The translations under genes and the position numbers were made by a program. This document shows positions 9,001-30,000 of a DNA stretch of 50,942 nt, one piece after another. The notes beneath the pieces were generated by a model. It worked only from the letters and a program-made list of their open reading frames with translations. It did not search any database and was not told where the DNA came from. The stretch comes from a bacterium. Its GTDB lineage: Bacteria > Omnitrophota > Gorgyraeia > Gygaellales > Profunditerraquicolaceae. Position 1 is the first letter of the stretch. The number at the start of each line of letters is the position of its first letter. Where the stretch lies: positions 1-50,942 of the forward strand of contig SCRK01000054.1 of NCBI GenBank assembly GCA_004298075.1, written 5' to 3'.

Positions 9001-12000
9001 GCCTATCTCGCAGTTTGCTTAGGTCCAATAAAGAATTCAGGGAAAATAGGCCGCAAAAGCCCGTGAAATTAGCAATAAAGTACGCGGGCAGGAAAATACT
9101 TAGGAATGTCAGGATTAATTTTACAGAATTATCTAAGAAGATCAAGCAGCATCTTGCCGCAGAATCAGAAATCGGGGCAAGCATGAGCGTCATTCAGGAA
9201 AAGTTAAATAAATTCCAGGAGCTAAAAGAAAGCTTAATCAATTCGATATTAAATGAGCACATGGCGACAAAAACGGTTTGTCTTGCTTTATTGAAAAAAG
9301 TCCAGGAAGAATGCCCTCTCACTGAAATAGGCTCTGAAGGCGTCTCTTCGGCCGCCTCCAGTCCTTTAGCTACGGTATACCCGGCTTTTACCACCGTAAG
9401 AAATAGCGAGAGGGGGATGCCGGTTGTAAAAATCACATTGAGAAATACCGACAAGAGAGGGAGTCTGCTTCTACCGGACGATATAAAAGTACTTAGTGAC
9501 ACGGCTTATCCAATCAATGAATTAAACGATATCCGCATGCGGATAATAGATACTTTTGATGCTGTTTGGCCGCTTTCGGAGAATCGCCCCATTATGGAGC
9601 GCAGCTTCATTATCCATCCTTGTCTTCCCATACGTGGTCACCGCGATCATACCTATTTGTGCGTCAGCACTAAGAATAACTTTTACTTGGCTCACGCTCT
9701 TTTCAGGCAAACCCTGCCTATTGAATTTAAGCAGGTTGTTTTGAAGTATAGAGGCTGGCGTACCTTGACCTTTGAAATACCTTTAGAGATATTAGAAAGT
9801 CACCGCTTAACTCTATGCCAAAGAGAAAAATACGGGATAATCTCGGAAGATGACTGGATTGCGGAATTACTGGAATACGTGAGGTTTAAGATATTTGTTA
9901 TCGGCGAGGAATTCACCCGTTCTCCATTCACCCGGTTCAGCGCTTCGCCGCTGGAGGGAGGGATGCAGAATTACTTTGTGAAAACCGCGGGAAGAAAAGG
10001 GAAAACAGGGCCATCAGCTTATTCTTCTTTTTCTGCGAGATACGATTATGGAGCGTTGGTAATGGGATTGTATAGATTTGAAAGGATAAATGGGGGCAGC
10101 CCAATTCAGGATGGGAGAAATTATCCGGAGCTGCGCGCTAATATCGCCAGAATCTTAGGGAAATCCGGATATCCGGCCCTGGCGGATATATTTTTTGATA
10201 CTTCCTCCCCGCTTTCAGCAAAAATGGCAATCCAGCAAACTCATGTAAAGAAATTGCAAGTTTGGCAGTCTAAATATGAAGATTGGAATGAAGTCGCGGA
10301 AATTGTCCCGGATTTAGTCAAGTTCAACGGCATTAATGGTTATGGGCGTTATCTAACGGAGGATGAGATAAATGCTTTGGCACAAAAAGTGCAGAACGGT
10401 AATAAAGCTGCAAGAGAGGTGCTCATTCTGACAAGGCGTGCCCAGGTTGCCGGCGCAGTAGAGAGATTTATTTTTGAGAATCCCTGTTTTAGTCGCGATG
10501 ACAAAGATGACCTTATGCAAATTGCAACATTCGGCAATGGAAAAGGCGTTGGTGGTCTTGCCCGGGCAGTAGAGCTTTTTGACCCGGATAACGGAGGGCT
10601 TTTTTCTGCATACGCTAAAATGTGGATTAAGTCGGCCTTATCACAAGGATTGCGCAGGCGGTTAAAGAACAAAGTGCGGCCTTTTGATTACGATCCGAAT
10701 GGATCCCGGGAAGGCGGCCCGGTTAACCGCATATCCGAAACAAAATGTTTATTTGAGGATGCATTGGAAGCTGATCTATCTGCGCATTTGCAGGAAGCTA
10801 TCCGGTATTTATCATGGACAATCTCGGCCAGAGATAAGGATATTTTAATTAGCCACATTAATGACGAGTCTAACCCCGCTATAGGTAAACGTCATAAAAT
10901 AAGCAATGAGAGGGTCCGGCAGATATTAGATAGGACGACGCAACAGCTTAAGGAGATGGTCCGCTCTGGCAAATACGCATTGATAAAGGCATTAGTTGGC
11001 ACGAAGGTGAGTGTTCCGGCAGTAAGCAAGCAATTTAATATCCCAGCTACTACACTTTATGTCCGGATTAAGGCCCATGGCATATCCCTGCCGGAATTGC
11101 GCAAACAGCTCATTTTAGAGTTAGGAAAGAATACGGGATTCGAAGCGGATGAAATGGCCGCGGAGCTTGGCATAACCAAAGAGTCTCTCTTTGACAGAAT
11201 GAAAAAACTGGGTATTCCGTGGCTAGAGGCAAAACATGCTTACGAAAAAGAATGGTTAATGCCGGCTTTAGCCAGTTGCGGAGGCAATATCTCTGAAGCG
11301 GCCAGGAAGCTTGTTATTGCCGAACAATGCTTACGTAAAAAGTTAGAGCCGTATAAATCAGAGCTAAAGGAAATGCGGCGCCAGGCTCTATTGGAAAGAA
11401 GAGTGGCAAGAAGAATGACAATCCTGCATGCCCTGGATGAAGCTGATTACAGCGTACCGCGTGCCGCGGCATTATTAAGCATGAGTACCGACACTCTATA
11501 TCAGAACATAAGCGATTTGGGCGTTGATTTAAATGCAGGAAAGAAAGCACGCGATAAGAAATGGCAGGATGAGCAGAGAGCAGAAATAACCGCCGCCTTG
11601 GAAGCAGCCGGATATGATATTTCCAAAGCAGCGAGGATGCTCGTGGTAAATCTTAACACCTTGCGTTGGCGAATAAAGAGCCATAAGATTGACGTGCAAA
11701 CTGGAAGGCAATCATATCTAAAAAGAATAAAGGCGGAAGAGCGGGCGCGTATTACAGAAGCTCTCATCTTTTGCGGTAACAGGGTAAGCCTTGTTTCCCG
11801 GTTCCTCAAGATCTCCAAAGATATTTTATATGATAGGATAAAAATTTACGGTATCGATATAAGCAATAAAGAACTCCTCAGACAGATTAACCATATTTTT
11901 GTTTCTAGCTTGTCTTTGCCGCCTTTAGTTGAGGACAATGCTATTTTCCCGGTGGTCGATTCGCCCAGTACAAACCTTTTTAAGCTCATAAACGAAACCC

Positions 12001-15000
12001 CCGAGTTCCTTTATCCGGGCTGTAGCGCTTCGCCCGTAACTTTAATAGGAGGAAAATGGATAAGTCAAAATAGCAATGAGATATTAAATATCGCGATCCA
12101 AGAAGATTCTGCGCCGGAATTGGTCATGGATAAGAGCGATAGCATGGAAAGAATAGGGAAGGTTGATTTCCACATTATTAATAAACTGGATATTCAAGTA
12201 ATAAATATCGAAATTGAGGATGTATTCTTAGGCAGAAAGCATTCATATGATCTTCTTGATTGCCTATTTTTATATTATTATCTGCAGGGGGCGTTTTCTT
12301 TTGAAGTTGTGAAAGTTCTTAATCCCCTTATCGCAAGAATGTTAATTAATATATATGGCTTTGATGCATATTTTAAGGACCGCAGAGTTGCTGCGGTTAT
12401 TGGAGAGAGCAAGGAGGGGGGGAAGGCCCAGATATATTTTGAGGATTGGATGGGTGAAGATATTCTGGAGAGGAATCTTTATGTAGGAGACATATTATTG
12501 GAATTAGAGGTTGTACAAAATACTCCCGTGCCCGGGACTAAGATCTATATAGGAGACCGCTATCATTTAAGGGACGAAGTACTCTTTAAGTCCAGGATGC
12601 AGCAGGTTATACGCAGGTGGACTGGCATCAGCGATTTTATGGTAAAAGGACCAATCGGCTCTTCCCCGCTTGCCTCCGCGCAAGGAGAGAGAAGGAGCGC
12701 AGAAGGGCTCCTGCCCAGTCTTTCCATTAAAAATGGCGCCAGGGTAGTAAAATGGGATAATTTCTACGAACTCGTATGCGCTTCGCCGGTAGTTTCTCCT
12801 TTCCGTAATTTTCTTTCTCATGCCCAAAGGACAAGAGCTTTGTTCAGGTCTATATGGTCAGCCAATGCGCCTCCGCTGATTATCGCCGCTATTTTATCAG
12901 TGTTTCTTTCTGCTCCCGCCTCCGCCAATTATTCTAAAACTTCCACAATCCCTTCAAGAGAGGAGTTAATCGAGAAGATAAGACAAAATGATGCCGATAA
13001 GATACGCCTTCTTGATGTCCTCATCAAATCCGGTTTAACCAGTGAATTAGCAGAAGCCATAATTGACCTTAAGATAAGCTGGCAGCAGGCATATGAGCTT
13101 GGCTGCAAGTTGCGGGATAATTACAAAAAAGGCATTTTAATGCTTACCGGTGGTAGGCTTCCGGAAGCAAAGGAGGTATTCTTAAAGATACTGGGCATGG
13201 AGAAAAGAATCGCGCCCGTCCATTATTCTTTGGGGATAATAGAGCTCGCCTTGAATAATCCCGAAGAGACCAGGCGCTACGCGGAAACAGCGATAAAATT
13301 GGAGCCGGGACATCCGCTAGGATATGAGTTGTTAGGGTATGCCTACATCGCTTTGGCCGTTAAAAAAGAGCAAGAAGGCGCAAGCTTGAAAGAAATTATC
13401 TTCTGTTATCGGCAGGGTATTCATAATCTAGAAAAGGAGATAAGATTGTTCCCTTCATCGGGGTATGGTGTTAAAGACCTGATAGGGAAAGTACGGGAGG
13501 TTATCCAGGGGTTGGAGGGCACATCTCCTGGGAGGCAACCGCTAAAACATGGCCCTGTTTTGAAAGAGAATAAACCGCAAGACAGCCCTGACAATAACCG
13601 CCGTAGCGGCTCCTCGCCTATTTCAGTAGGATTTCTGACAATCCCTGATTATGCGGATATTTTAGACACTATTAAGGCGATAGGAATGGCGACGAGGCAT
13701 TATAACGAGAGACAGTATCGTGCTATTAGGCGCTTTTCGGTTCCGGAAGGAAAAGTCGTTTGCGCTTCGCCGTTGGCATACGGGAAATATCCCGGTATCC
13801 CCTTCTACCCGGTTGGGATACCCGTTGATCTGGATGATTATTTTAAACTGCACTATCCTCGCGGTTTCAGTGTAAAAACTAAGGTAGCTTTTGTCAGAAT
13901 AAAAGATGCGCTCAACCTATTCTTGCCGGATGATTTTAGCGCAATATTAGAAGGAAAAATCAACCATATCCTGAAGATCGCAAAAGGGTATTATCCTAAT
14001 GGTCCTTCTCGCGATGGGCTGGTATTTAAAACCCCCGGTATAAGCTTAACCCGTATGAAATCCATGGTTATTACGACTGATATAGAGTCAAATTTTAGCG
14101 AAAGTTATTTAGAAGGCTGCAGTTTAATCATTCGCCTGGTCCGTCAGACAGAGTTGCTCCTTGATATAATCCAGGCTGGCTCGCAAGAAGACGGCATAAT
14201 AGTGCGCGCAGGATCCCCCCTGGGGAATACTCGTGATGATTTATTATTTGCTCTGGATGGCTTGCAAAAAGAGATCGGCCTTGAAATATCTCTTCTGGTT
14301 CTGCGTGTAGGTCTATGGTTAGGCCTGCCGATAGAGGAATTTTCCGCCAATGCTGAATCTCTGGTTAAGGGGATGAAAAGTTGGGATAGCCATAAGAAGA
14401 TCGCCATATTTTGGGCTTTAAGGGATTCCGCGAACAGGCTCCCCAGAGATGATGAAAAATCCTTACCCCTGACAATAGCAAAACCTTTGTTTGATTTAAG
14501 CGAAAATGAACTAAGCGCATTGAATATGGCATTGGCAAATTCCGGTTGGAAACTCCACAGGATCGGCGAGGGTTCGGTAGAGTTGATGCCGGCGGCTATA
14601 TTTGTCGTAGAGGACCTGATCAAGAAAGAGCTTGGCGAATATGAATACGAGAGGTTATTCGGGATTTTAGGCAGGTTCAATGACTTCAGGGAGAAGTTAC
14701 TAAGATTAGCCGCTATTGGCAGGGAACTTGCTGGCAGCTTAGAGCCGGAGAGGCAATTCTCTTCTTCCTCTATCGGGGTATCTACCTTTGAGCAGCCGGA
14801 TTTTGAAGAGTTATTTTTTAACCACTCTAATCTCGAGCGGCTTTTTAATTCCGGAGAGAGGCAAGTTATATATTTGGCGGAAAGAGGCTGGGGTATAGGC
14901 GAGATTACGTCAATAGGCGGGGCTTTACCGAAGATAAGGTTCCCAAGCACAAAGCCCGCAGAGAGGGAGTTCAATAGAGCCGAGATATTAAGGTCCGGTC

Positions 15001-18000
15001 AGCTTCTTAGGGGGGAATACCATGACCTCTACGTAAAATATAGTAGGTCTCAAGCAAAACTGTTGCCTAAGAAGCCCCTTGGGCGGACACGGCATGAAAC
15101 CGGTTTTATACAAAATTTTCTTGCTCTTTTACCTTCGCAGGAAGATGTTCAAGAAATAGAAAAACTGTTGGCTAATCTTTTGGCTAGGCTTCAAGACGCC
15201 GTGATGGGCGGGAAGGAGATTACTCAAGAAGAGCTGGTTTATTTTTCAAATCAGCTTAGCCGGAATTGCCCGATATTAATTGAATTAGGGCAAAAGCCGG
15301 CTTTTTATCGGCCTCTGCACAGTTACACGGGAAATGAAGAAATAAAGGCCCTGCTTTTCTTGCTTTTGAGATTGAGAAAAATCCTCAAAATGATGGGTAT
15401 AAGCAAAAAGAAGGGATTTACGCAAGGAGAAAACAAGATAAGGACCCTGCTCCAGGAAAGATCGGATAAATTATCAACGGCTTCTCCGTTGATCACTGGA
15501 GCCATGGTAGCGGTGGTCGGCGGGATAGCCGCAGCAAGCTCGATACGCATGATTATTTTTGATATGGGCAAGACGCTTTATTACAGCAGGGAGCTTTCAG
15601 AGGCGCAGAAGAAGCTTACTTGCAGATTTGCCCTGGAGAAGTTAGGCAAAGCGGTTACCGAGTCCCAGGTGAGGGAAACTATCGCTAGATTGAACAGCAT
15701 GAGTGGGATGCTGCGCTATTATGGGCTTGAGAATTCAGTAGCAGAGTATTTGCGTTATTTAGGAGTACATCTTTACCCCGTGGATTATCTCATCCCGGTT
15801 CCCGGGCAGAGAGAGCTACTCGCCAGATTGGTAAAGAATGGTCTTATCCTGGTAGTGGCCACTAATACCGGCATCAAATTCAGTGAGGAGGCCCTTAAGG
15901 CGACCGGGGTACGCCGGTATTTTACCCGGGTGATGACTCAGGAAGAGGCAGGTTTTGGCAAGCCGCATCCCCGGCAACTGGAGCTTCTTCTAGAGGAGTT
16001 TGCAGCTAAACCTTATGAGATCAAACCTCACGAGGTAATTGTAGTAGGGGACCGTTGGGATATCGATATAGTCCCAGCGCTCGCCATAGGGATGCATGGT
16101 ATTGAGGTAAGAGGCCCCGAGGACCTGGTGGATAATCTGGAATCAAAGATCAGGGCTCTATGCGAGCAGGTAAGTTGCTCTTCTCCCGTAGGATTTGGGA
16201 AGATTGAATTCCGCCAGGGCCTGGGCCCGGTCATTAAAGGGGATATTGCTTTTGGTGAGAAAAATCTGACGGTAATCTTCACGCACGGCAGGGGGAAAGC
16301 TATCGACTATTTAAAATTCAGTGAAGAGCAGCGGCTGGAGAAGGAAAAAAGAAGGCTGCCGTATTATCAGGAAGCGCTGGAAGAAGGTGGATTCCTTTAT
16401 AGCCTTGCCGAAGCAGGATTCAATGTGCTTGCCTATGAGCATTTTGCTCCGTGTGATGAAAGGAACCCTTTGTTTACCTCGAGAGAATTAAGCAGATATT
16501 TAGAGGGGGCATACCGTTATGCCAACCGGCAATTCGCAGGCATATCCCAGGTGCATTTGGCGGAGAGCTTGGGCTGCCGCATATTTATGCAATGGCTCAT
16601 GGGTTATTTCCTTGATGATGACGGAATGCCCAAACTGCCTGAAGAGAGGCTGAATATCAAGCGTGTTTACCTGCTTAACCCCGTCTTTACTTTTACTGAA
16701 AACTTTAAGAAATCCCGCGGCATAAGGTTGGCATCCGCTATTCACGGAATTAAAGCCTATTTCGCAGGAAGGAAGAATTATCTGATGGAGGAGATCATGT
16801 CTGCAGATTACATGAAAGATATCTTCGTTCCTTTCCTGCATATCTATTTATTTCTGGCAAATAATAATAAATTGGATTATCTCCCGAAGGTTGTGGTCAT
16901 CAATTCCATAAGTGAATACGGCTATCCCTATCCGGATGCAGAAATGAGCCTTAAGCGCAAATTACTTTTCAGGCGTGCCCCCGGGACAGACGGGGTTGCC
17001 GAACTGCCGGAGGAATTTCCTTGCGGCATGCGGCAGTTGCCTATTATCCGGGGTGTGCCGCATTTTGCCACCGCCAAGGAGGCAAAAATAATAAATTCCA
17101 TTATGTCAGACATATCATTTAGCCGCGTGGTTTCTTCCTCGCCGCTGGTTGAGTTCTTAGGGATCTTATCAGGAGAAGGATATGCTGGTTTTGTGATCCA
17201 GGAGGTACGGAAGGGGCTTGCCCGCGCGATAGGAAGCCTGGTTTCAATCATTTTTTCTTCTTCTCCCGCGAGAAAAACCTCTCCATTTTCCCAAAAGGAA
17301 AAAACGCTTTTTAATATGTTGAGAAAACAGACTTGGTCAACTTATGAGCCTTTTGAAGTAAAGTCAGCCGTCAGCATCTTTCTTAAAGGCATATTCCGCT
17401 CGGGTAAGAAGAAAAAAGTGGACGATATCATGGGCCTGCGGATTATCAGCGCGGACATGTACGCGGCTAAAGAGATCGTGATCAATTTTTTCAAGAAAAA
17501 CGGGATTATGTATAAACCGCCGGAACTTAAGCTTAAGTCTAAAAAAGGATATGAAGCCACACATATAAACTTCAGCCTAGGTTTTTCCGGAGGGAGAAAG
17601 CCGCTGCCTTATGAAATAATGATCATGGCTCCCCGGGAATATGAAGGATATATCAGTGGGAGAGAACCAAGGGAAGGCTATCCGGCAGCAGTTCCTCTTT
17701 GGGCATATGAAAAATACAAACGTCCCTGCGAGCCGCTAAAGGGGGATGAACAGATTTTTTCCCCAGATGAAATCCCGCTCATCCATGATTTTAAAGAGAA
17801 TATGAGACGTATCCGCGCATCCCTGGGAAATAAGATATTCGTGATGTATCTGGGGCAGAAGAAAGAGGGGATGAGCATGCAAGTTGTGAGCTTGCCGAAG
17901 AAATCGCGGCCCGAGGATTTATTCAGTATCCTTTATCCCGAATGGGAAAATGAAGGAAAACACTTTCCTGGATTCCAGAAGATAAATATCGGAAAAGACG

Positions 18001-21000
18001 GAAAAGGCCTTCCATATGAAGTTTCGCGGACAGTTCTAAAAGAAGAAAAGCCGCTGGAAAATCTGATGGTCGTGACGTTAAATCATGCTAAGAGACCCGC
18101 AAAGCCTTCCGCTTCTCCATTGTTGATGGAAAGTCGTGACCTTGGGCGGCTCAAAAAATTGTTCCCTATTTCCGGTAATATCTCCAGCGATAAATCAGGC
18201 GGTTACATAATTAACGCACTTACGAAGGATGAGGGTATCAATTTACGGATCCAGGAATTATTTCGGGAGTCATTGGATATCCTTACGCAAAGAAAGGCAT
18301 TCGGTAACCTGCTTCCCGCCGGCTGGGAGCGCAGCTTCCCCTTTGAGATCACTGTGAAAAAAGACATTTTCTCGTCAAGCCGGGATAAAGGATGCATTGT
18401 ATTGCCTCTACAGGCGGTATATTACCCGATGCTGTCCGCCTTTATAATCCGTCACTACATCCACAAGAAAATGCGGAAAACCTGCGAAGTGCATCAGGCA
18501 GACGCGATTTTTATTTTGAAGCTTAGAGGCGATGAGCGCAAGGCGATCCTCTCCGCACTAAAAACATACGATTATCCCGAGATAGGCAGGTTGGAGGGGC
18601 TGGAGAAGGCGATAGCGGATAAGAACATGCAGGAAATGTTCTCTTATATTTATAACGTAAAACCTGACCAGATGAGTATAGGTAAAGACAAAGAAAGCCA
18701 TATTTTTTATAATCTTATCTCTAAATTTGCAAGGCTCAATGTCTCAAGCGGCAGGATTTTGAGCCTGGCCCTAGGCATTATCACCATATCCGAAGATAAT
18801 AATGAATTGGATAATCTGCTAACGGGGCTATCGTATGTACCGGAATGGCAGGAGATCCTTTTAAAAGACAAGGCGGATATGGGGGTACTGGCGAGAAAGC
18901 TGGATCAGTTGCTTTCGGAGGGCATTTGGGAGATCCATCATAAGGATATCGGCCGCCGCTGTGCGCTATTGGCGATTGTAAAGAAAACTTTGCTGGGTTT
19001 TCAGAAAATAAAGGCCAAAGAACCAAATAACGCGCCACATAACAAAAATGCACTGGCGAAGCATTTTAATAACTATGCGGCTATGGTAAAAGGACTGTTG
19101 GGAGAAGTCTCCGGGGTCCACAAATATACTTTTATACACAAAGATACCTTGCACGCCTTAGGAGATACTAATCTGATATTGGGATTGGATGAAGTAAACC
19201 CTATCTATATCTCAGGTGCCGGCATTCAAAAAGAATGCGACGGCGTAAGCTTTGACCTGCAAGCTGGTCAAACTAATAGTGAAAGCAGCGGCTGGACCAT
19301 TTATGAATTTAAGTATAATCTAACTTTATCCGATCTGGTGCATCAGATAGTCGGACAGGATAGGGGAATTTCTGTTTTTCACCTTGTTTTAGACGGGCAT
19401 AAGAGGAAAACAGTGCTTCTGCGCGTTAAGCGCGTAGTGGTCTTCGGTGAACATGCCGCTCCGGAGTTGATAATCAAACAAGTATCTTTCGCTGAAAATA
19501 GCGCCACTTTGCCAGTGTCGGTGAAAGGCATGGGGCCACTGACAAAGCGGTATGGGAGGAATGAAGAAGGTTTTACTATCAGGTACACATTAGGGGAATA
19601 TAAATTATTCCTTGAACAGCAAAGGCCGGACATAAAGACAGCTTTAGAAGAAATATTCGGGAATATGCAGTTGCACAATATAACCGTGCCATTTGAAGCG
19701 TGCATAACCATAAATAACCCCAAGCCTTCCTCCAGTTCTCCTGTTGCAAAGGTGCAGGTTGCCTACGCGCAGCCTAAATTAGGAGAGGGAAAATGGAGAT
19801 TCTCGAAGGGGCAAGAAAGGAAATGGGTGCAGGATATCGAAGTTAAATTCAAACACCAACGGTACGGGCTCCTGGCGGATATCTATCGTAAGATAGGCAC
19901 TAAAGCCAACTGTACCTTTATGGCCATGCAGGAGGGCGCGGGCTTATATACCTTGACATTGGGCCTGGAATTCCCCAAAAAGATGGTTTTAAATAAGGTC
20001 ATCACCGCCTTAAATTCCATAAAAGATTATCCTCTTGACGCAGGAAGCAAGACCGAGACTTATGTGCTGGAGTTTGATCTGCCGAACCGCCCGGGAAGCA
20101 GGATTAATCTGGCAAATTTCTTTGAGTTGAATAAGATCAGCGTATCTCAGTTCCTTACCCCGCGTATTTCCAATACCAGGAACAGGGTCCATTTTATCTT
20201 TGAACTGGAGATACCGGCGGGTTGTTCTCTTGAGGAGCTCCTGAAAGGGCTGGAGAAGAAGATTGATTGCGGGAACGCCGACCTCTTCCGTGGCAGGCTG
20301 GTTGATAAGATATTGAATAGGTTCCTGGTGTCTTTAATAAGCAGGGGAATAGCATTACGCAATGGAGATAGAGAGAGTCTTAAGAAAGCCCTGGAGATGG
20401 CTGCCGAGACCCAGTTGAGCTGCGCCAGAAAAGACAGGGCCATGCCGTATATTATGCACCCTATAGGCGTGGCGGAAATAGCCGTAGACCTGGTTTTACT
20501 GGCAAGGGATGAACTATTGAAATATTGCATATTTGACCCTCGCATAGACGGCGGAGGATTGATCCTTCTGGAGAAAGCCGGCCTTTTGCATGATGTAATT
20601 GAAGACGCCGGAGAGAAAGCAGGGCTCGTTAAGGAAAGGATCCGCCTGGAGTTTCCCGATGTATATCCAATTCTGGAGATCTTGTCCAGGAGGCCGGGAG
20701 AGAGCGAGGAGGCTTATCTGCGGAGGATCGTTACGGCAGCGCACACTTTTGGCTTGGAGGGGGCTATCGCCCTGCTCATTAAGATCGCCGACAGGATCCA
20801 TAACCTCTCGACTATTTACAGGTTAGACAGGGCCGCGCAGCGTAAGGCAGTCTTCTCAACTTTGAACACATTCATACCGATACTCATTAACAATATTGAT
20901 CTTGAGCTGATTCCCAGAAGCTCCCGCGATGTGATTGATCTGGCGTTAAAAAGATTTAAATACCAATTACTTAAGACAAGTAGAGGCGTTAACCTGATTG

Positions 21001-24000
21001 ATGAAGAGATGGTTATAAGAACCAAAGAATTTTCAGGATACATTAAAGAGGAATTAAAGCGGAGGGAGATATTTAAACAGGGAAGAAACCGGGAATATTT
21101 GCTTTTAGAGCCCTATCAGGAAATTATTAATGGGTTTAAAACCCCTGCCCTTATTTATCAGGAATTATATGTATCCGTCTCGCCAGAAAGAATTTCCGGA
21201 GCGGGGAGAACAAGTTCTCCGGTTAACCGCCTTAATTTCCCGGACATAGAAGTTGCTGTAATGCCTTCGCAGTGCGATGAAAGTCTGGCGAGAGTTTTGG
21301 CGGACTCAATTGTACCTTCAAAATTGGGCCTGGTTATCAACGGCGCGTCTTTTGAACCCCAGCGAATAACTGCTATACAGATAGCTTCAGTTCGCTCTGA
21401 TTTCAATGTTTTATCCGCGAAGAAATATGACGGTTTGGAAGCATGGCTTATTAACCTTTATCCTAAAGAGGTAACAATCAATCTCGCCAGGCCTTTTAAG
21501 CAGCAGGCGATGATATACCGCAACCAGGCCTTCGCGGTTTACAGAATAACTTTAAAATCCGGTGATTTGACTTTAGGTCATTTCTCTATCGCGGCAAAAT
21601 TAGACACAAAAGATAAATTCAGGATCCCCGCGATATTAGCGGAGGTTGCCGCTAACGGTTCTTCTCCGTTGGGGGCCTGCGTGGCTGGGCGTGGATTAGA
21701 ATATTTGCTTTATAATGGAGAGATAAGCGGCGCTAAGCAAAACTGGTTGCTGCCGACTTTAAGTATATTCACCAGTGGATATTTTCATGCCAACGTTTTG
21801 AATGATATAGGGTTAATCGCCGCTGGAAAGACGGCCTATCCGGCATATTCCGGCAGGGCTCCGCCTTCCAGCAACGTATCCTCTCCGCTCAAGAAAAGCC
21901 CGGATCCCGCGACCAAGAAAAAAGGGCCTTCTCGTGTCGCTTCGTTCAAATCTCTATGTCAGGACCCTTTATCCACGGCCGTTGTTATAGTTTTTGTAGT
22001 TCTGGTTGCTTTATTCGCAAACGCTATTTTTTCCTTGATGATCAACTCCTGTCTTGGGCCTCGCTATGCCATATGGTTCTTCACAACGGTATGTATTTTA
22101 GTTATTTCTGCCGTTCTATTTGCTTTGGTCTTTCCTTATCTTGTTTCTCTGCGCACAGCTTTCATTACGGGAATCATTATAGGGGCTGCTTTTGGCTTTT
22201 TAGGTAAATGCGTTAGCGAATTTTGCCTTGAGTCCCCTATTACTTCCAGCCAGGCTTTGATTTGGTTTTCCCTTACCATAATCGCAAGCGGCTATCTGCA
22301 TTGGCGCCTCGCGCGCAAGGATGGCTTTTCCAAACCAGGCAAGGAGGATAAAAATGATGCCGGCTCCAGAGAGAATAAAGCTTCCTCCCCAGTACAGAAA
22401 AGCATTTTAATGAAAGATAAATATCCCCGGATTGAAGCGGTAGCCAGTTTCCCTGAATCGTTTGCGAAGGCAGTAAAACAAAATCATGGCGAAATAATCT
22501 ATGCTTCACATCTAAATTTTACGCGTTTCAATCCCGATTTTCTTTTGTCTTTTTATTATGGGCACCTTGATGAGCGGCTGGTAGATTTTATAGAGCTTAA
22601 ATATGGCGCCTGGCTCCGTGAACAAATACTGACTTTGCATGAGGCCTTCTTTAAAGGAGTCATTAGCTGCCTGCAAGGGTATCCCGGGTTACTTTTCGCC
22701 GGCATAGAAAAAGATAGGATTGGCAAGACGGTAAAGCTGTTAAGCGCGTACAATACACCGGCTATTATTGTTCCTACCAGGAATGAAGGCGCGGAACCCG
22801 TTTTTGAAATGCCCAAAAATAGCGTTATTCCCGAGTATTTTGATAATTTCTGGTTGACCGGATGGGGGAAGCTTACGCGCATATTCGGGCATCTGGGGGT
22901 AAAAAATGCATTGGTAGCGGGAGAATTCAATTTTCCCGATACCCTCGCTTGCGTAGAAGCTTCGCGCTCTCACTTGAACAGTTTTTTTAGGGCAAGAATA
23001 CTTCCGGAATATACCTTTCCGGGAGTAAAATCGCACATTATTGGCGAATATGTGAGGCAATGCGCAAAGAAGTCTCTTTATCTGCTCGAGCAGCAAAGTG
23101 TTTTTACTTCCTCTCCGTTAAACCCAGGTAATTTCAATTGCAGGGATCTGTTGCCGGATTTAAATAGCCTGGGACATTTATCATGTGTTAACTTTAACAA
23201 GAAGATAACTCTTTGTCTGATTGTGATGGTGGGAATAATAATCTATCTAATATATCCGCTGGTATCAGTAAAAGGGAATGTAATGGGAGGGGTAGAAATT
23301 GTAGAAAAATCTCCAAAAGAAGATCATCCGGAAATCGGTACGGCCGGAGCTGCGCAGTTGGACAAATCCGGCTTCCTTGGGGAGCTTAAAAAAGAGATAA
23401 AAGCTACCTGTTCAAATGGTAGTTTATTTCTTGCAGCATTGATCACGATGGCGGGAGCATTGTTTAGCAAATGGTTTTTTGACGCAAGATACGCTATTTA
23501 CTCGGTTTTTATAATCTTAGGAGCAGGAATTGTCGCCGTCTTTTTTAATGTCGTGGAATCTTTGTTGTCGCAAGACAAATCCAAAAATAATAACCCCATA
23601 AGCTCCGATAAAAACTCGATAAATAGATCTTCAAGCCCCGCTTTCGTTACGGAAGCAAGCTCCTTCCATAGCCTTCGGCCGAGGGTTAAGGGTAACGCCG
23701 CTGAATTTAAGACCACGGATTTACGCAGGGCTTTTATGGAAAATGGCTTGCAGATCATCGGCCATTTAAGTTCAGAGGGAGCAAGAAGCCGTATCTACAA
23801 GGCTGTTGAGCTATCCAGCGGGATCCCCGTGGTAGCGCGTCTGCCTAAAAACGGTCAACCTCTCAATAATAGTTTTGCCCAGCGGTGGATCGATAAACTG
23901 CAGGGGAGGACGCACCCGGGCATTATACAGATATATAAGGTTGATAGTATTATTTTGCCTGGAAAAGGAGACACGGAATATCAGGTCACAGAGTATGTGG

Positions 24001-27000
24001 AGGGGAAGCCTCTTTATAAGGTGGTGCGTTTTAGAAAGAAGCTTGCTTTGCCGTCTTTGTTTGTGTTTGAGACGGCTTACCAGGTATTAACGGCCATGGC
24101 GTTTCTTTACGCTAACGGTCTTCTCCATGCGGATATTAAATTAGAGAACATATTAATTACCGAACATCGAAAGGTGAAGTTAATAGATCCCTGGTTTAAT
24201 ACGGGAGAAGCTGATTTAGAGGTCCTGAAATCAAAGTGGGAAGAGAGGGCATGTTTTGAGAATCTTGTGTGGTGGCTTTTGTATGAATTCAGGCTAAGGG
24301 AATTCCTGGGGTCGTTTGAGCCGGTTATTTCCGCGCTTATGGAAGTGGGGCCTCATAATCGGCATGAGATAGGCAAGCTGGAATCGGAGGTTTTAAGGCA
24401 TATAAATCTTTTGAAAAACCACGGCATTAAGATTAATAATTTTGACCCCAATTCTTTAATTAACCCCATATATTCATGTTGTGCCTCTCCGCTTAGCGCA
24501 GAAAATCTTATATTATCTAGAGAAGCAAGGGATATTTTGGGCGCGTATCTCGATGAATGCATAGATACCTGTCGTAAATGTGTGCCGGGGAATTCCCGTA
24601 AAGTTATCATAAAGGAGAATAAAATACTTAAAATGGTGATGAGAAGGTCGATGGATAGATCCGTATGTTATTTCGCAGGCAGATATCCGGACTCTAATTC
24701 ACCAGAAGATTATATTAAAAGATATATAAGGGAGGACATTTACTTTAGCTCCATGATAGTAAATATGCTTGATTTCCTGGAAGAATATATTTCCACAACC
24801 TGGTTGTTCCGCTCCGCGGAAGGGTGGATGGATGAATTAAAGGAATATTTTGATGGGTTAATTGTGAAGAGAGAAAACGCGAATGATTTCCGTATCGATG
24901 TGTATTCGTTGGGAGGTTCTTATGGGGACGAGGCCTATAGCATTGCTCTCGTTTTATATGAGTGCCTCGACAGGTATGCGAAAACGCGGCAAAGAGAGGA
25001 TTCGTGGATCAAGAAATGGCAGGTGGGGATAGAAGTGCTTGACCCTAATCTGTTTGCGCTCCACCGCTTCATGGAGCGAAAAAATATTTTACTCGCGAAA
25101 AGCAGCAAATTAGGCATGTTGGGAGATTATCTTGGATATGCGAAAGCAAGAGAGGTCTTTAGCCGGATTAAGAGCTGGATGCAAGCCAGCGCTGTCTATT
25201 TTTCTCCCGGGCTATTTTCTTCGGGAGATGAGGTGAAAAAACTTCTTACCGTATCCAATACGCGCGTAGATGTTATCTTTTCTCTCAACGTTTTGCCTTA
25301 TATCGGCTATCCGGCGATGCAGGATTTATCGCATAGCGTGAAAGAGGGCATAATACTTAGCTTAAAAGGTAACCCAGATTCGGCGCGCTGGGTAACTAAT
25401 TATCAGCTTGACGGACCGGCGCAAATATTCAGGGTCGCGCAGGAAGAAGTGACGCGTCTGCCTAATAAAGCAGGACAGCTAAGACTAAGTGCCTCACCGC
25501 TAAGGTCCGGCATATTTTCTTCTTTCTCAATGGATATCCTTCAGCCGGTATGGCGTCTGACTAATCTCGTGATTGTTTCTTCTCTGTTATTTCTTAATCC
25601 CTCCTACGCTTCTATTCTTCAGAGGCATCCCGTTAATTTAGATGGGGAAAGGACCATCAAGATGGCCATAGGGGTAAGCGAAGGAGTTTGTTTAGAACCG
25701 TTATTAAGAAAAATAAATGTTCCTGCGGATATTGCCAGGGCGATCAGCCGGCTGCCGGCAATAACTCCGGCTAAGGCCATGATCATGTGGAATGTCATTC
25801 TTTTGAAGCCCCAGAGGGTTATTAGCGGCAGCTTGCCGTTTGAGCCGGGAGGCTCCTCTAGCCCGATTTACGCAGGCAAGGATATCTTTGATATTTATTC
25901 TCTGATGCTTATCAAGAGCGATCCCTTCGCTGTCTACCCGGCGATACAAGACCCCGGTCTCTATTTTCATATAGGGCCTATTCTCGCATATCCGAAAGAG
26001 GACAAAAAAGAAGCGGCTCAATTGAAACCTGCTTACAATCCCCCGAGGAAAAGAGTCCCCTGGACGGCTAAATATAGAGAATGGGGGATAATTAAGGAGA
26101 TTATCCCCGACCTGGTCAAGCGCGACGGGTTTATTAGGGAGAAAAGATTTTTAGATGATTATGAAAATCTTATGTTATTCAGAGAAACGCAAAAAGGCAA
26201 CGCGGCTGCCAGAGAAACCTTGATTATGGCATATCTTCCTCTGGTCTACGGGAGGGTAAAAAGGTTCATCGGACTTCATCCTTACTTAATTAATGACCGG
26301 GACGATCTGGTGCAGGTCGGCATTTACGGGAACCATATGATCACGGGAGGGTTTGCCAGGGCAGTGGAGCTTTTTGAGGCAAGAATAGGCTGGATGGGCT
26401 TCTCACACTATGCCACGCGATGGATTGACGCAGCCATGTTGGCGGAGAAAAAGAAGAAAGATAGAATACTCAGCAGGGAATCCCATTTTGATCTTGATCC
26501 GGAGGAGCCTAATAGAAGGGAACCGCTTGAGTTAATACCTGACGAGAATGATTTATTCGAGAAGATAGAAGAGGCAGATGCCTGGTCCGTATTTTTTGAG
26601 GCACTTGAGTATCTCAAGTCAATGATCTCGGAGAGGGACGGCGATATGCTGGTAAGCAGGCTTGCCGAAGAAAGCCTGGTAAGCGTCGGGAAACGTTACG
26701 GAGTATCGCATACTCGTGTTAAGCAAATTGTGGACCAATTAAAAGTGAGGTTAGGTGAAATAATTTATTCAGGCGAGTTCCGCAATGGCCCGGATGCCCT
26801 TCTTAGAGTTTCCAGTAACCTGACTGCCGCTTCTCCCCTTGGAGGTCCAATAGAATGGTACATTCTCCGCAATGAAATACTTTCGGAACCGGTCATATTC
26901 GGCAATAAATTTATACGCAACCATGTCAACCCCTTATCAAGAGAACTGACCGTTGCCGCGGGCTGGGCAGGCACGGATATCGCGAATCTCTGGCTGGCAA

Positions 27001-30000
27001 CCCATTTCTCCACAGCCATTATGATTAACGATTTCAAGATAAGATCCAACAGGCTGGGATTCCATCTTAATAAATGGGAAGAGTTTGACGGCCAATCGGA
27101 TTATTTTGTCCATAAATACGAGCTCGGATATAACTATACGGAGGATTTCTATCCAGACCGCCGCAGGAATATGGAGCCGGAATTCTTTATTTTACAGGAG
27201 CTCCGGGGGATGGGCATCGGCAAGGACCAGATAAGGATTTATACGGATAGCCGGAAAAGGACCGTATTATCTTTCAAGCCGCTTGGTATACAGGAGGAGA
27301 GCAAAATCGTATTTGTTAAAGATAATATTCTTTCTCCGGGAGATAAGCTGAATAATGAATTGTCCGGCAAGCTGAATGTCTACTACCAAAAAGCCTGCGA
27401 AGATTTCGGTTCATGCTATGAGGAATATCTCCCTTCTATCCTAAAATGGATTAAGCCGGGGGGGTTTCTTATTTTCAATCCCTACACCCAGTCAGGCAGC
27501 TATACCATCATCTATGATTTATTAACGGGTTTTAATCGGAGAGGCAATACGAAGCTAGCCCTCTCTTCATCGCAAGATCCCGGCATAGTAGAACAGGCTG
27601 GATACCTGGAGATGAAAACCACCGGCCACGGTTGGGCTATGGAGATCTGGCAGAAATCTTTCTCTGCTTCGCCCCTGCAATCGCAGATGCGGCAGATAAT
27701 CGGTTATAATAAAAAGGGTTGTAGAACGGAAACTTTCTCTTATCAGCCGGGAGGCTCTTTGGGGCGCAACGACAGGTTGCAGGTGAGAGGGGAAACCGCG
27801 CAGTGGTTGGGAGCCAGGGCGCATAATACGGTATTTCAGCATCCCGGGGAACCCTGGGCTATCCGTCTTGGGAGAAGTATTTGCTCCAGAGCGCAAGATG
27901 CTTTATTGTTAGCCGGCCGGGCGTATTATGGTTTTGCCGACCTCTTTAATCGGGGGGTATCCGTACCCAGGCCTGTAGGCATAGCGGTTGCGCAGTGCGA
28001 TATCGGTTACTATCCCTGTTGTTTTGTGTTGAGAGTAGAAGGCAGGAATTTATCGGAGATCATGGAGAAACGTCCTCTCAAAGAGAAGGAGAGGGTGGAG
28101 ATGCTCAATTTAACCTGCCAGCTTATACAGAGCGGGCGGTTTATTCCGGACTTAGACGCGACGCAAGTTATGTCCGGGAAGACCTCTCTGGATGATAGGG
28201 GTGAAAGGATATTCCTGACAGATCCTGACGAGGCAAAGCCATACGACCTGGATATAGCGTTTGTCCTTGAGCATTATAGCCGTAAGCTTACGGGTTTATT
28301 TAATATCCCTGTCTCCCCCCATGGGATTTATAAATTTTATGCCAAAAGATACCTTTTCCCGCTGGCCGTCGCTAAAGGGGTATCCTTTGGACGGGGGGTT
28401 TCTTCTCCGCTAAGCGACCGGGGGTCGATCACGATTAGTAACGATACCTTAGTGAAGAAAATAGGGGCGCGTTATAATTTACCCTGTTGCGCGACAAAAG
28501 ATGCCCAGTTAGAAGATATTAAAAACCACTCTTTTGGTTACAATTTGAATATTCTGCTGGATGTTCTTTATATGATTATTCGCAGAAATTCTTCATCCCC
28601 GATATATTCATACAAAAGCGGTCAGCCTGCGTCGTCCAACATAGAAAGTAAATATATCCTGTCCGCCCGGGCCTGGCTTTTGCTAAAAACAAAGAAGGAG
28701 CTTAAGTGCAGCGTACCGCAGCTTTTTATTTATTCGGAATTAGTCTTTGACGAAATTATTTTAACCAACCCCTATAACCTTCCCGGGCATTTGTTAAACT
28801 ACATAGATACCGTAAGAGAGATGTTCATGCTTCTATACAAGCGCGTGAACGGGGTGCTTGATAGCGATATTGACTCATCCGCAAGCCTGGAGCGGGCAAA
28901 GGGCATCATCCTTATGCTGGAAGACATGCTGACATCCTTGAAATCATTATTGGGTAAATGCCTGAAATGCCGGGAAATTAACAGTTCCGAGCTTAAACGG
29001 AAAATAGAAAGTATCGCCAGCACGGTCAACGATATCGGATGTGTATTTAAGCCATTTTTTGAAAAAAAGACATACATCCAGGTAGATGCCAATATTATTA
29101 TCCAGGAGGTGCTGGATTTGCTGGATTATTACGGTCAAAGATGCTTCGTAAAGACTGAATTTGACCCCGACCTTCCGCTTATTACAGTTATTCCCGCTGA
29201 TTTATATCTGATCTTCTCTGCCATTATCATCAATGCCATGGAGGCATCCGCAATAAAGGGAGATCCGGAAATAACGGTAGAGACGCGTTTTATCGCTCCT
29301 GCCGGTTGCATACAGGTACTTATCAAAGATAACGGCAGCGGCATAGATACGAAATATTTTTCCAAGATATTTGAGCCGCTTTTTACTACCAAGCCGGGCA
29401 GCCTTGGCGTGGGGCTCTCTATAGCTAAAGAAATAGCGCGCAGCTACGGAGGAATGTTAGCGATTTATACAAAAGCGAATAGCGGCACTACTGTGATTGT
29501 TACTTTGCCCGTTGAATTCTCCGCCTCGCCGCTAGAGGCAGAAAAGATCGTTTGCCTGCTCAGGGGAGGTCTTCATCAGGTAAAAGACCCCAGGAATTAT
29601 AAGGAATGGCAAAGGGCCGGATATGGACCGTTAGTCCGCAGGTCTTCAGAAATTCTTGGCGGATGGCATAATGTGGTAAATAAGCTGGGCTTTAAGCCTT
29701 TGACGAGGGAGGAAATCGCGCAGAATAGAATAATATGGACAAAGGAAGAAATAATCCATAGATTATTAAACCCTCCCGTTGAAGTAAGGAATACCTGGAA
29801 TTACAGGCAATGGGAAAAATCCGGTTATTCGCGAATGGTCAGAAGGGCTTCAGAGATATTCGGGGGATGGGAAAATGTATTGAAAGAAATAATGATCCTT
29901 CGTCTCTTTCATTCTCATCGAAAGATAAGGAATCCAATGGACCGCCGGACATGGATAAGAATAGGCCATTTCGAGATGGCCAAACTGGCATTATCCCTGT

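Follow-up and report, generated by a model that had tools for sequence, protein, structure and literature searches.

One open frame divided by a recurring motif

We analysed a stretch of 50,942 nt (the window) on contig SCRK01000054.1 of an Omnitrophota assembly (GCA_004298075.1), with attention to positions 17271-21224, where a preliminary description had reported RelA/SpoT homologue (RSH) functions spread over three modules. All features described here lie on the forward strand. The region is part of frame +3, which is open over the whole window (3..50942): a six-frame count found no stop in its 16,980 codons and 586 to 1369 stops in each of the other five frames. Frame +3 had the codon-position GC content of normal coding sequence (approximately 0.49/0.37/0.47), and 17271-21224 was translated as 1,318 codons without interruption. 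About 20 unrelated Pfam families tile the frame, which runs past both window ends and is a fragment of a giant multi-enzyme gene. That the window is a single open reading frame (ORF) was absent from the preliminary description; because frame +3 never closes within the window, the ORF list included no long ORF on the forward strand.

Short peptides recurred throughout this frame, ASPL 24 times and SSPL 16 times. The motif [AS]SP[LVI] had 50 copies in the 16,980 codons, where about 1.9 were expected, and the five-residue form [SGACT][AS]SP[LVI] had 45 copies against 0.3 in shuffled sequences. Variants with one mismatch were near chance, except for those at the last motif position, which were enriched. 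The information content was limited to positions -1 to +4 in the peptide and to 5-6 junction codons in the nucleotide sequence. These junctions cut frame +3 into about 50 protein-sized modules, of which the 48 internal ones ranged from 40 to 1,735 aa, with a median of 277 aa. None of 49 junctions fell inside the 22 Pfam domain stretches, where 9.2 were expected (P ~5e-5). Some modules resembled whole proteins, such as a 233-aa HAD module, and HATPase_c domains ended 7 and 15 aa ahead of a junction. In histidine kinases, too, HATPase_c lies close to the C-terminus. One hallmark of a processed polyprotein, a short motif recurring at the borders of autonomous units, was found here (45 copies against 0.3; 0/49 inside domains).

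The limits of the three modules reported in the preliminary description (17271-18122, 18123-19745 and 19746-21224) coincide exactly with recurring SSPA, ASPL, SSPV and SSPV motifs. In the motif scan, the junction SSPL (aa 5712-5715, 17136..17147) closed the preceding module of 319 aa. A variant junction with one mismatch, SSPA (aa 5753-5756, 17259..17270), stood directly before the first module (M1), and the match to the M1-family profile began eight residues on, at aa 5764. The start at 17271 given previously is explained by the enrichment of last-position variants of this kind. The border between M1 and the second module (M2) was ASPL (aa 6037-6040, 18111..18122), that between M2 and the third module (M3) was SSPV (aa 6578-6581, 19734..19745), and a further SSPV from the motif scan (aa 7071-7074, 21213..21224) marked the end of M3. 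Junctions were located in the ends of the M1 and M2 AlphaFold models with a low predicted local distance difference test score (pLDDT), including the M1/M2 ASPL in the tail of the M1 model.

Internal expression units were considered and rejected. The modules do not begin with Met, and a check of the junctions for internal expression signals found that the last junction codon was NTG at just 26 of the 50 sites. Promoter-like sites occurred at chance frequency, and between 15500 and 23000 terminator-like hairpins were rarer than in shuffled sequences (3 against 9.5, sd 2.9). This depletion is consistent with selection for unbroken transcription of a giant gene.

The three modules between 17271 and 21224

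Relatives were sought by an exhaustive HMMER search of 1.84 billion protein representatives, which yielded 50 matches in proteins of 135-7,848 aa. Each of the 50 covered only one of M1, M2 and M3, at widely differing positions. A word-indexed protein search with a 1,359-aa region found nothing at E<=1e-3.

M1 (aa 5757-6040, 284 aa, 17271..18122) had a match to Pfam RelA_SpoT (PF04607; E=4.7e-4), but its 20.9 bits did not reach the gathering score, which is 27. It had no match in NCBIfam, and a single-sequence search of the Protein Data Bank (PDB) returned no RSH but LC3 proteins only, at insignificant levels. Twelve M1-type relatives were found, mostly within long proteins. A profile of the relatives' full modules (665 positions) matched M1 with 183 bits, its positions 227-492 corresponding to aa 5764-6035, and the relatives P0006, P0025 and P0015 themselves passed PF04607 (34.4, 28.0 and 27.7 bits). 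A 13-sequence M1-family alignment (A1) was the input to a PDB profile search and to an AlphaFold model. In the profile search all PDB matches were to Rel, RelA, RelSeq or one of two small synthetases, YjbM and YwaC (E=2e-5). Membership of M1 in the RSH synthetase domain (SYNTH) was thus obtained through family profile and structure and not through its own Pfam score. The preliminary description had made its synthetase-like assignment depend on RSH-family profiles; M1 did fall short of the PF04607 cut-off, but homology at the level of the family overturns this formal failure.

Several M1 relatives have an upstream HD_4 match of 28-49 bits, above the Pfam cut-off, and a weak downstream ACT_4 match. 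They read LHK where HD is expected, which identifies the upstream part as a pseudo-HD. The family normally has the layout pseudo-HD, SYNTH, TGS, helical and ACT, all contained in a single module of about 600-720 aa between two junctions. The long-RSH order HD-SYNTH-TGS-helical-ACT was found in the modules of L009, P0024, P0029 and P0035, but not in M1. Neither a pseudo-HD upstream of M1 nor the C-terminal ACT of the family was found anywhere in the window with the M1-family profile. Judged by these alignments, M1 is a trimmed SYNTH-like and TGS-like core of a divergent long-RSH-like family. In the AlphaFold model built with A1 (pLDDT 63), residues 53-134 and 170-275 were confident, while residues 1-52 were disordered (pLDDT ~30).

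The synthetase-like part of M1, of nucleotidyltransferase fold (17295..17720), was delimited by Pfam, the family profile and the A1/PDB alignment. It was compared with the motif set RxKxxxSxxxK, DxxGxR, GYxSxH, ExQxRT and HWxYK, taken from aligned Rel, RelA and small alarmone synthetase (SAS) sequences; the functional roles of these motifs are well established for RSH enzymes. M1 lacks the full canonical set. It keeps DDIMGLRII (17421-17447; DxxGxR), the KGYEATH of KGYEATHINF (17544-17573; GYxSxH) and the Glu of YEIMIM (17610-17627), which stands for ExQxRT. It has lost the Gln and the Arg-Thr of that motif (Met, Met, Ala), the His of HWxYK, represented by LWAYEKYK (17697-17720) with Leu, and the Arg of RxK. 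Two candidates for the RxKxxxSxxxK helix, KEKTLFNMLRK (17295-17327) and FEVKSAVSIFLK (17352-17387), both read K/E-x-K. The presence of two adjacent helices of this type (17295-17387) suggests a local duplication. The strand E[IV]M[IV]M in place of ExQxRT was common to the whole M1 family, and because of this conservation EIMIM cannot be attributed to random decay. Canonical alarmone synthesis by M1 and a SAS function are both doubtful; from its residues, a weak, re-specified or purely regulatory or sensor domain is more likely.

The TGS-like beta-grasp part of M1 (17778..18095) was recognised from the family profile, model residues 170-275, ubiquitin-like Foldseek matches and the weak LC3 matches. 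Its core, MQVVSLPKKSRPEDLF (17877-17924), is the counterpart of VIELPxGAxPxDFAYxIH in Rel and RelA. The M1-family profile aligned through the TGS of 7oiw and 5iqr ('VieLPkGayPiDlA.h'), although the window copy is degenerate (VSLPKKSRPEDLFSILYP), and Pfam TGS was not detected in M1.

M2 (aa 6041-6581, 541 aa, 18123..19745) belongs to a conserved family with eight homologues in the exhaustive search, and had no match in Pfam, NCBIfam or PADLOC. Residues invariant in the family include GxxSG.HK, KExD and ExK, with [IV]xISNP at the C-terminus. AlphaFold modelled it as one compact unit with disordered termini (pLDDT 76.9, predicted template modelling score 0.79), and a Foldseek search with this model found no fold neighbour in the PDB (best E 0.73). 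The modelled fold is apparently new. In the family alignment the module is bordered by ASPL and SSPV in the window, by DGG on both sides in five giant proteins, and by its own termini in P0001, which is encoded by a stand-alone gene. M2 may represent an uncharacterised enzyme family whose members occur within giant proteins and also singly, as a protein that looks secreted.

M3 (aa 6582-7074, 493 aa, 19746..21224) comprises two ACT-like domains and an RSH-type hydrolase HD domain, on the evidence of PDB, Pfam, NCBIfam and the family alignment. The two ACT-like repeats (19836..20216) were recognised from a weak ACT_4 match (residues 31-94 of M3; E=0.015, 16.4 bits, cut-off 27) and from the M3-family alignment, in which both repeats, the linker, the HD domain and a C-terminal extension are all conserved. 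The first repeat starts with IEVKFKHQRYGLLADIYRKI (19836-19895) and the second runs from YVLEFDLPNRPG to HFIFELEIP (20061-20216). For the homologue P0002, the precomputed annotation includes a confident match to ACT_4, together with HD_4.

The HD domain, of the (p)ppGpp-hydrolase type (20388..20882), matched TIGR00691 of NCBIfam (E=4e-10), and its best PDB matches (E=3e-7) were to long Rel enzymes, in their hydrolase domains, with HPI, HDxxED and ADRxHN aligned. The motifs ARKDRAMPYIMHPIGVAEI (20424-20480), LLHDVIEDA (20583-20609) and KIADRIHNL (20781-20807) were found in the domain, and ARKDRAMPYIMHP, LLHDVIEDA and KIADRIHNL align to the catalytic RK...HP, HDxxED and ADRxHN motifs. The domain had been called strong; this holds for its motifs, which are intact, but its scores are modest, with Pfam HD (PF01966) at 25.3 bits (cut-off 22) and HD_4 (PF13328) marginally below threshold at 26.3 bits (cut-off 27.2). 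From the intact catalytic motifs, M3 is predicted to be an ACT-regulated (p)ppGpp hydrolase.

The preliminary description therefore stands as regards module content: synthetase-like and TGS-like in M1, no known family in M2 and ACT-like followed by HD in M3. Its proposal of a small synthetase and a small hydrolase in adjacent cassettes holds in part. The two are indeed separate, motif-bounded units resembling such enzymes, but a check of catalytic residues found the hydrolase motifs of M3 complete and several synthetase residues missing from M1, whose active site is non-canonical.

Related loci and the remainder of the window

The window itself was not located in genome, viral and metagenome collections by searches with exact 40-mers. 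A locus scan was performed with a 4-sequence subset of the M1 family, as the 13-sequence A1 was too divergent. Among species-representative genomes it detected four loci, all four in metagenome-assembled genomes of Candidatus Omnitrophota, and two further loci were found in metagenomes. In the six loci the matching frame was stop-free over most or all of the DNA fetched. The junction motif was enriched 15-35-fold in nine other long ORFs with GC contents from 35% to 54%. Scored as [AS]SP[LVI(A)], it was observed 23 times in P0024 (0.9 expected), eight times in P0030 (0.4), five times each in P0029 (0.24) and P0035 (0.23), and four times in P0027 (0.2). Among the loci, L002 had 24 copies (1.2 expected), L008 (GC 54%) had 11 (0.5) and L009 (GC 35%) had 12 (0.3). 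Both AGY and TCN codons were used for the junction Ser in L002; given this and the span of GC contents, the junction is a signal at the peptide level.

Junctions also bounded the RSH-like modules in these loci. The full module of L009 (profile positions 19-661) is bordered by junctions at aa 3022 and 3739, the copy in L002, which is shorter (profile positions 14-571), by junctions at 3069 and 3673, and in L008 the RSH-like module terminates exactly at a junction. In long relatives without [AS]SP[LVI], DGG was the top over-represented tripeptide (14 against 1.3 expected, 10 against 1.2, and two proteins at 6 against 0.6). The proteins with DGG, often as KDGG, were P0008, P0014, P0016, P0019 and P0007/P0020. 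DGG is a second dialect of punctuation, flanking the M2-type module where the window has ASPL and SSPV. In locus L004 (JBFMBZ010000081.1) a variant SGSP took the place of [AS]SP[LVI] (4 against 0.04 expected). Not all carriers are punctuated: P0023 (6,022 aa) and P0017 (4,064 aa) contain an M3-type module without a punctuation motif. P0023 also carries a canonical synthetase (ELQIRT).

Some M3-type proteins, of about 480-700 aa, are encoded by genes of their own with ordinary genes as neighbours (e.g. P0002). Stand-alone M2- and M3-type proteins (L005:3427-7222 and L006:10001-11980) have in common a hydrophobic N-terminal leader, a head tag and a tail. The head tag, 'L[AS]P[AV/Q][LI]', lies about 20-30 aa past the leader and aligns with the window junction; the SSPV at the M2/M3 border aligns with the form 'L[AS]P[AV][LI]' of the stand-alone M3-type proteins. 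Their C-termini end in '[small][AS]I' ('...[IL]E[QR][AS]I'). In L005, an unrelated Methyltransf_28 gene, the upstream neighbour of P0002, has all three tags, and RecJ, YggT and other neighbours are without leader, head and tail tags.

The Pfam content of frame +3 includes HEAT, 4-alpha-glucanotransferase (E=4e-64), sigma-70 r2/r4 with three HTH_8, TPR, HAD, RelA_SpoT (weak), ACT_4 (weak), HD, Ser/Thr kinase, CheR, two HATPase_c, NUDIX, radical SAM, epimerase, 3-dehydroquinate synthase, nucleotidyltransferase and PIG-L. The modules flanking the region (aa 5394-5715 and aa 7075-7223) had no Pfam match, nor did the three longest antisense ORFs. In PADLOC, M1-M3 matched neither toxSAS nor any defence profile; the only matches were to generic kinases, elsewhere in the window. 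Three modules (10215-12038, 25869-26840 and 29535-30992) have a common paralogous domain of about 150-240 aa with 37-40% identity; the first copy matches sigma-70 regions 2 and 4, followed by three Fis-type HTH_8. Of the 18 transmembrane-like segments in the whole window, three or four are clustered at 21951-22232, in a 168-aa module just downstream of the region, and this module has a weak bacteriorhodopsin-like Pfam match (E=0.009).

Interpretation and comparison with known systems

Region 17271-21224 probably consists of three juxtaposed modules of an Omnitrophota-type giant multi-enzyme gene, in which some 50 unrelated modules are delimited by [small]-[AS]-S-P-[L/V/I]. Because relatives match single modules, M3-type genes occur on their own and the M1-family profile is blind to M3, sequence comparison favours the view that M1, M2 and M3 became neighbours by juxtaposition, as members of two separate RSH-derived families and an unrelated module, and not as one permuted RSH. 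The gene is most likely translated as a single chain, having one frame and no internal starts, promoters or terminators. Its junctions mark where modules start and stop, as shown by their avoidance of domains and their coincidence with the termini of stand-alone homologues. Cleavage is the most likely role of the junctions, which a dedicated endopeptidase would recognise to free the modules. M3 would then act as a ligand-regulated, Mn-dependent (p)ppGpp pyrophosphohydrolase, as its intact catalytic motifs predict. In M1, the Asp and Glu that bind metal are retained, as is the GYxxxH guanine site, and the weak, re-specified, regulatory or sensor role suggested above would be more likely than canonical alarmone synthesis.

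Several observations weigh against the juxtaposition of cleavable modules. The Pfam score of M1 lay below the gathering score, its model was of mediocre quality, and the best Foldseek matches of that model, SAS1, SAS2 and SpoT together with ubiquitin-like folds, were weak (E ~2e-3, template modelling score 0.2-0.3). Some modules carry two enzymes (epimerase and 3-dehydroquinate synthase), so one module is not always one protein. Between consecutive junctions there are also seven pieces of less than 100 aa (40-87 aa; e.g. 12672-12791, 13623-13775 and 42219-42347); these could serve as spacers or pro-peptides, be set free as small peptides, or be what is left of deleted modules. The junction codons are biased relative to the ORF background (TCG 52% against 10%, CCG 72% against 34%, CTG ~52% against 18%), and an exact 12-mer, GCCTCGCCGCTG, is present at 11 junctions, all in frame and all within 33015-50942, the 3' third of the window, which is low in GC at third codon positions (GC3). 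These copies are concentrated where GC3 is lowest (0.36), especially in 42207-50942. Codon bias and 12-mer together hint at an extra or alternative role at the nucleotide level. Finally, Pfam detected no peptidase domain in the window or in the related fragments L008 and L009.

We tentatively suggest a wider possibility, that Omnitrophota giant genes are true cellular polyproteins, whose modules would be freed by a dedicated endopeptidase at a lineage-specific motif ([AS]SP[LVI], with SGSP and DGG dialects). Here the cargo would include three sigma-70-like modules, kinases and sugar enzymes, besides a module resembling an alarmone hydrolase and a sensor derived from an RSH. The head tag of the stand-alone homologues would then be a leader-processing site. 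The freed modules might serve as a stoichiometric effector set, maybe after export towards a host or prey cell.

An unlikely, though still credible, alternative is that the junctions remain uncleaved and serve as flexible linkers, docking sites or modification sites in a permanent, membrane-associated mega-scaffold, in which M1-M3 would act in cis. The missing peptidase, the modules with two enzymes and the 18 transmembrane-like segments are all as expected for such a scaffold, and published surveys treat the giants as single proteins and report transmembrane helices or signal peptides in 94% of them. However, an invariant S-P core across genomes of 35-54% GC is rare for simple linkers, and a junction-like motif also follows the leader of stand-alone homologues, where a linker would be needless. 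The sigma-70-like modules, in addition, would be expected, from what is established about sigma factors, to require release before they can act.

It is less probable again that the junction is primarily a nucleic-acid signal, such as a microhomology or recombination site for in-frame shuffling, an RNA-processing site or a translational pause, with the peptide as a by-product. The strong codon bias, the identical, in-frame 12-mers in the region of lowest GC3 and a mild TCG/CCG excess in L002 would fit such a signal. So would the clear shuffling of modules among giant genes and module extents that vary by whole domains yet always stop at a junction. Against this, the 5' half of the window and L002 use both AGY and TCN for Ser and many codons for the last residue, so that only the amino acids are conserved. 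The motif also persists from 35% to 54% GC, nucleotide conservation does not extend past 5-6 codons, and there are no copies on the minus strand.

The preliminary description can be read as one RelA/SpoT enzyme that was split and circularly permuted (SYNTH-TGS, insert, ACT-HD), with halves rebuilding a bifunctional enzyme as SAS and small alarmone hydrolase (SAH) cassettes. Each of the four RSH domain types can be detected in a span of 4 kb, an excerpt from a tandem RSH duplication would show the same order, SYNTH-TGS...ACT-HD, and in the long protein P0023 an M3-type module occurs together with a canonical RSH. Nevertheless, this is very improbable. None of the 50 matches covers more than one of the three modules. 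The M1 family has its own pseudo-HD and ACT, and the M3 family has its own double ACT and HD and also stands alone. The M1-family profile, although it includes pseudo-HD and ACT, fails to detect the ACT or HD of M3, and M2 is a separate family with unrelated contexts. Circular permutation of a single RSH was rejected on the single-module matches, the M1 profile and the layout of the M3 family.

An assembly chimera or a pseudogenised region with functionless RSH-like remnants, to which the low Pfam scores of M1, HD_4 and many other modules and the missing catalytic residues of M1 might point, is effectively refuted by the absence of stops in frame +3 against 586-1369 in the other frames, by its normal codon-position GC, by six independent public loci with the same organisation, and by EIMIM and KGYEA, which are kept in 12 relatives at 25-38% identity and thus under purifying selection.

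The junction motif provides a concrete, testable map for the question whether giant proteins are processed. Two preprints on giant genes leave open whether the product is one protein or is cut into many. If the reading of the junctions is true, their list would amount to the first cleavage map of giant proteins in bacteria. With the map, giant proteins can be divided computationally before annotation or structure prediction, an approach taken here with M2, and proteomics can look for the predicted neo-termini. Alarmone biology gains two unusual RSH derivatives that travel as shuffled modules: a long-RSH-like family whose HD is a pseudo-HD and whose synthetase strand reads E-x-M-x-M, and an ACT-ACT-HD hydrolase-like family.

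Long RSH enzymes combine HD, SYNTH, TGS, a helical or coiled-coil (CC) part and ACT, in that order, in one polypeptide, whereas a SAS has SYNTH only, without HD, TGS or ACT, and a SAH has HD only (Atkinson et al. 2011, PMC3153485). M1 is homologous to the SYNTH and, in its TGS-like part, apparently to the TGS of the long enzymes (Rel/RelA/SpoT), and the HD of M3 is closest to their hydrolase domain. Unlike them, the window copy of M1 has no HD and no C-terminal helical and ACT parts, and the HD of its relatives is a pseudo-HD. M1 units are also modules in a giant ORF and not free-standing genes of ~740 aa, and they have E[IV]M[IV]M for ExQxRT. As in the SAS enzymes RelQ/SAS1 and RelP/SAS2, which were the best Foldseek matches of M1, a hydrolase domain is absent, and the family profile matches YjbM and YwaC. 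However, M1 carries a TGS-like domain, has no Arg in RxK and neither the Gln nor the Arg-Thr in ExQxRT, and no SAS subfamily profile in NCBIfam or toxSAS defence profile in PADLOC matched it. M3 resembles SAH enzymes (Mesh1, RelH-type) in being a hydrolase-only RSH derivative with intact HD motifs, and small HD-only proteins were among its weaker matches (P0031-P0050; PDB 7qoc, 3nr1 and 5vxa). It differs in its two N-terminal ACT-like repeats, in a C-terminal extension of ~110 aa, and in an HD nearer to long-RSH hydrolases (E=3e-7) than to solved SAH structures (E of 2e-3 or worse). The SAS and SAH classes proposed for the two modules were thus not retained, M1 because of its TGS-like domain and M3 because of its ACT repeats and C-terminal extension.

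Viral polyproteins, such as those of picornaviruses and potyviruses, are processed at short protease recognition sites. The window has in common with them one ORF, unrelated units and a short, degenerate, recurring motif in unstructured linkers. It differs in being a cellular bacterial gene, 5-50 times longer, with ~50 or more junctions, at which cleavage is a prediction, and in having motif dialects that vary by lineage ([AS]SP[LVI], SGSP and DGG). Our literature search found nothing relevant linking giant genes, or Omnitrophota, with polyproteins.

The cleavage points of giant proteins were stated to be unknown by West-Roberts et al. (2023, bioRxiv 10.1101/2023.11.21.568195). Omnitrophota proteins of up to 147,155 aa have been described by Nielsen & Lui (2026, bioRxiv 10.64898/2026.06.07.730766), where the text contains no mention of a motif, cleavage, linker, junction or polyprotein. 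The recurring junction motif is reported in neither preprint, and RSH-derived modules are not described in the parts consulted. The motif and its dialects appear to be undescribed so far. According to the 2026 preprint, class 1, the 'multi-enzyme metabolic clusters', comprises ORFs of at least 10,000 aa with many distinct Pfam families, none dominating, and contains HATPase_c, HAD, HD regulators, radical SAM, NUDIX, HEAT/TPR and sugar enzymes. The window, with at least 16,980 codons and about 20 distinct families, fits this class. It is like these giants in its stop-free ORF of more than 10,000 aa and its many unrelated Pfam families, and the confirmed related genome loci are all from Omnitrophota. 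The RSH content of the window falls in a superfamily that is already known, and the gene that carries it, a multi-enzyme giant, is of a recently described kind.

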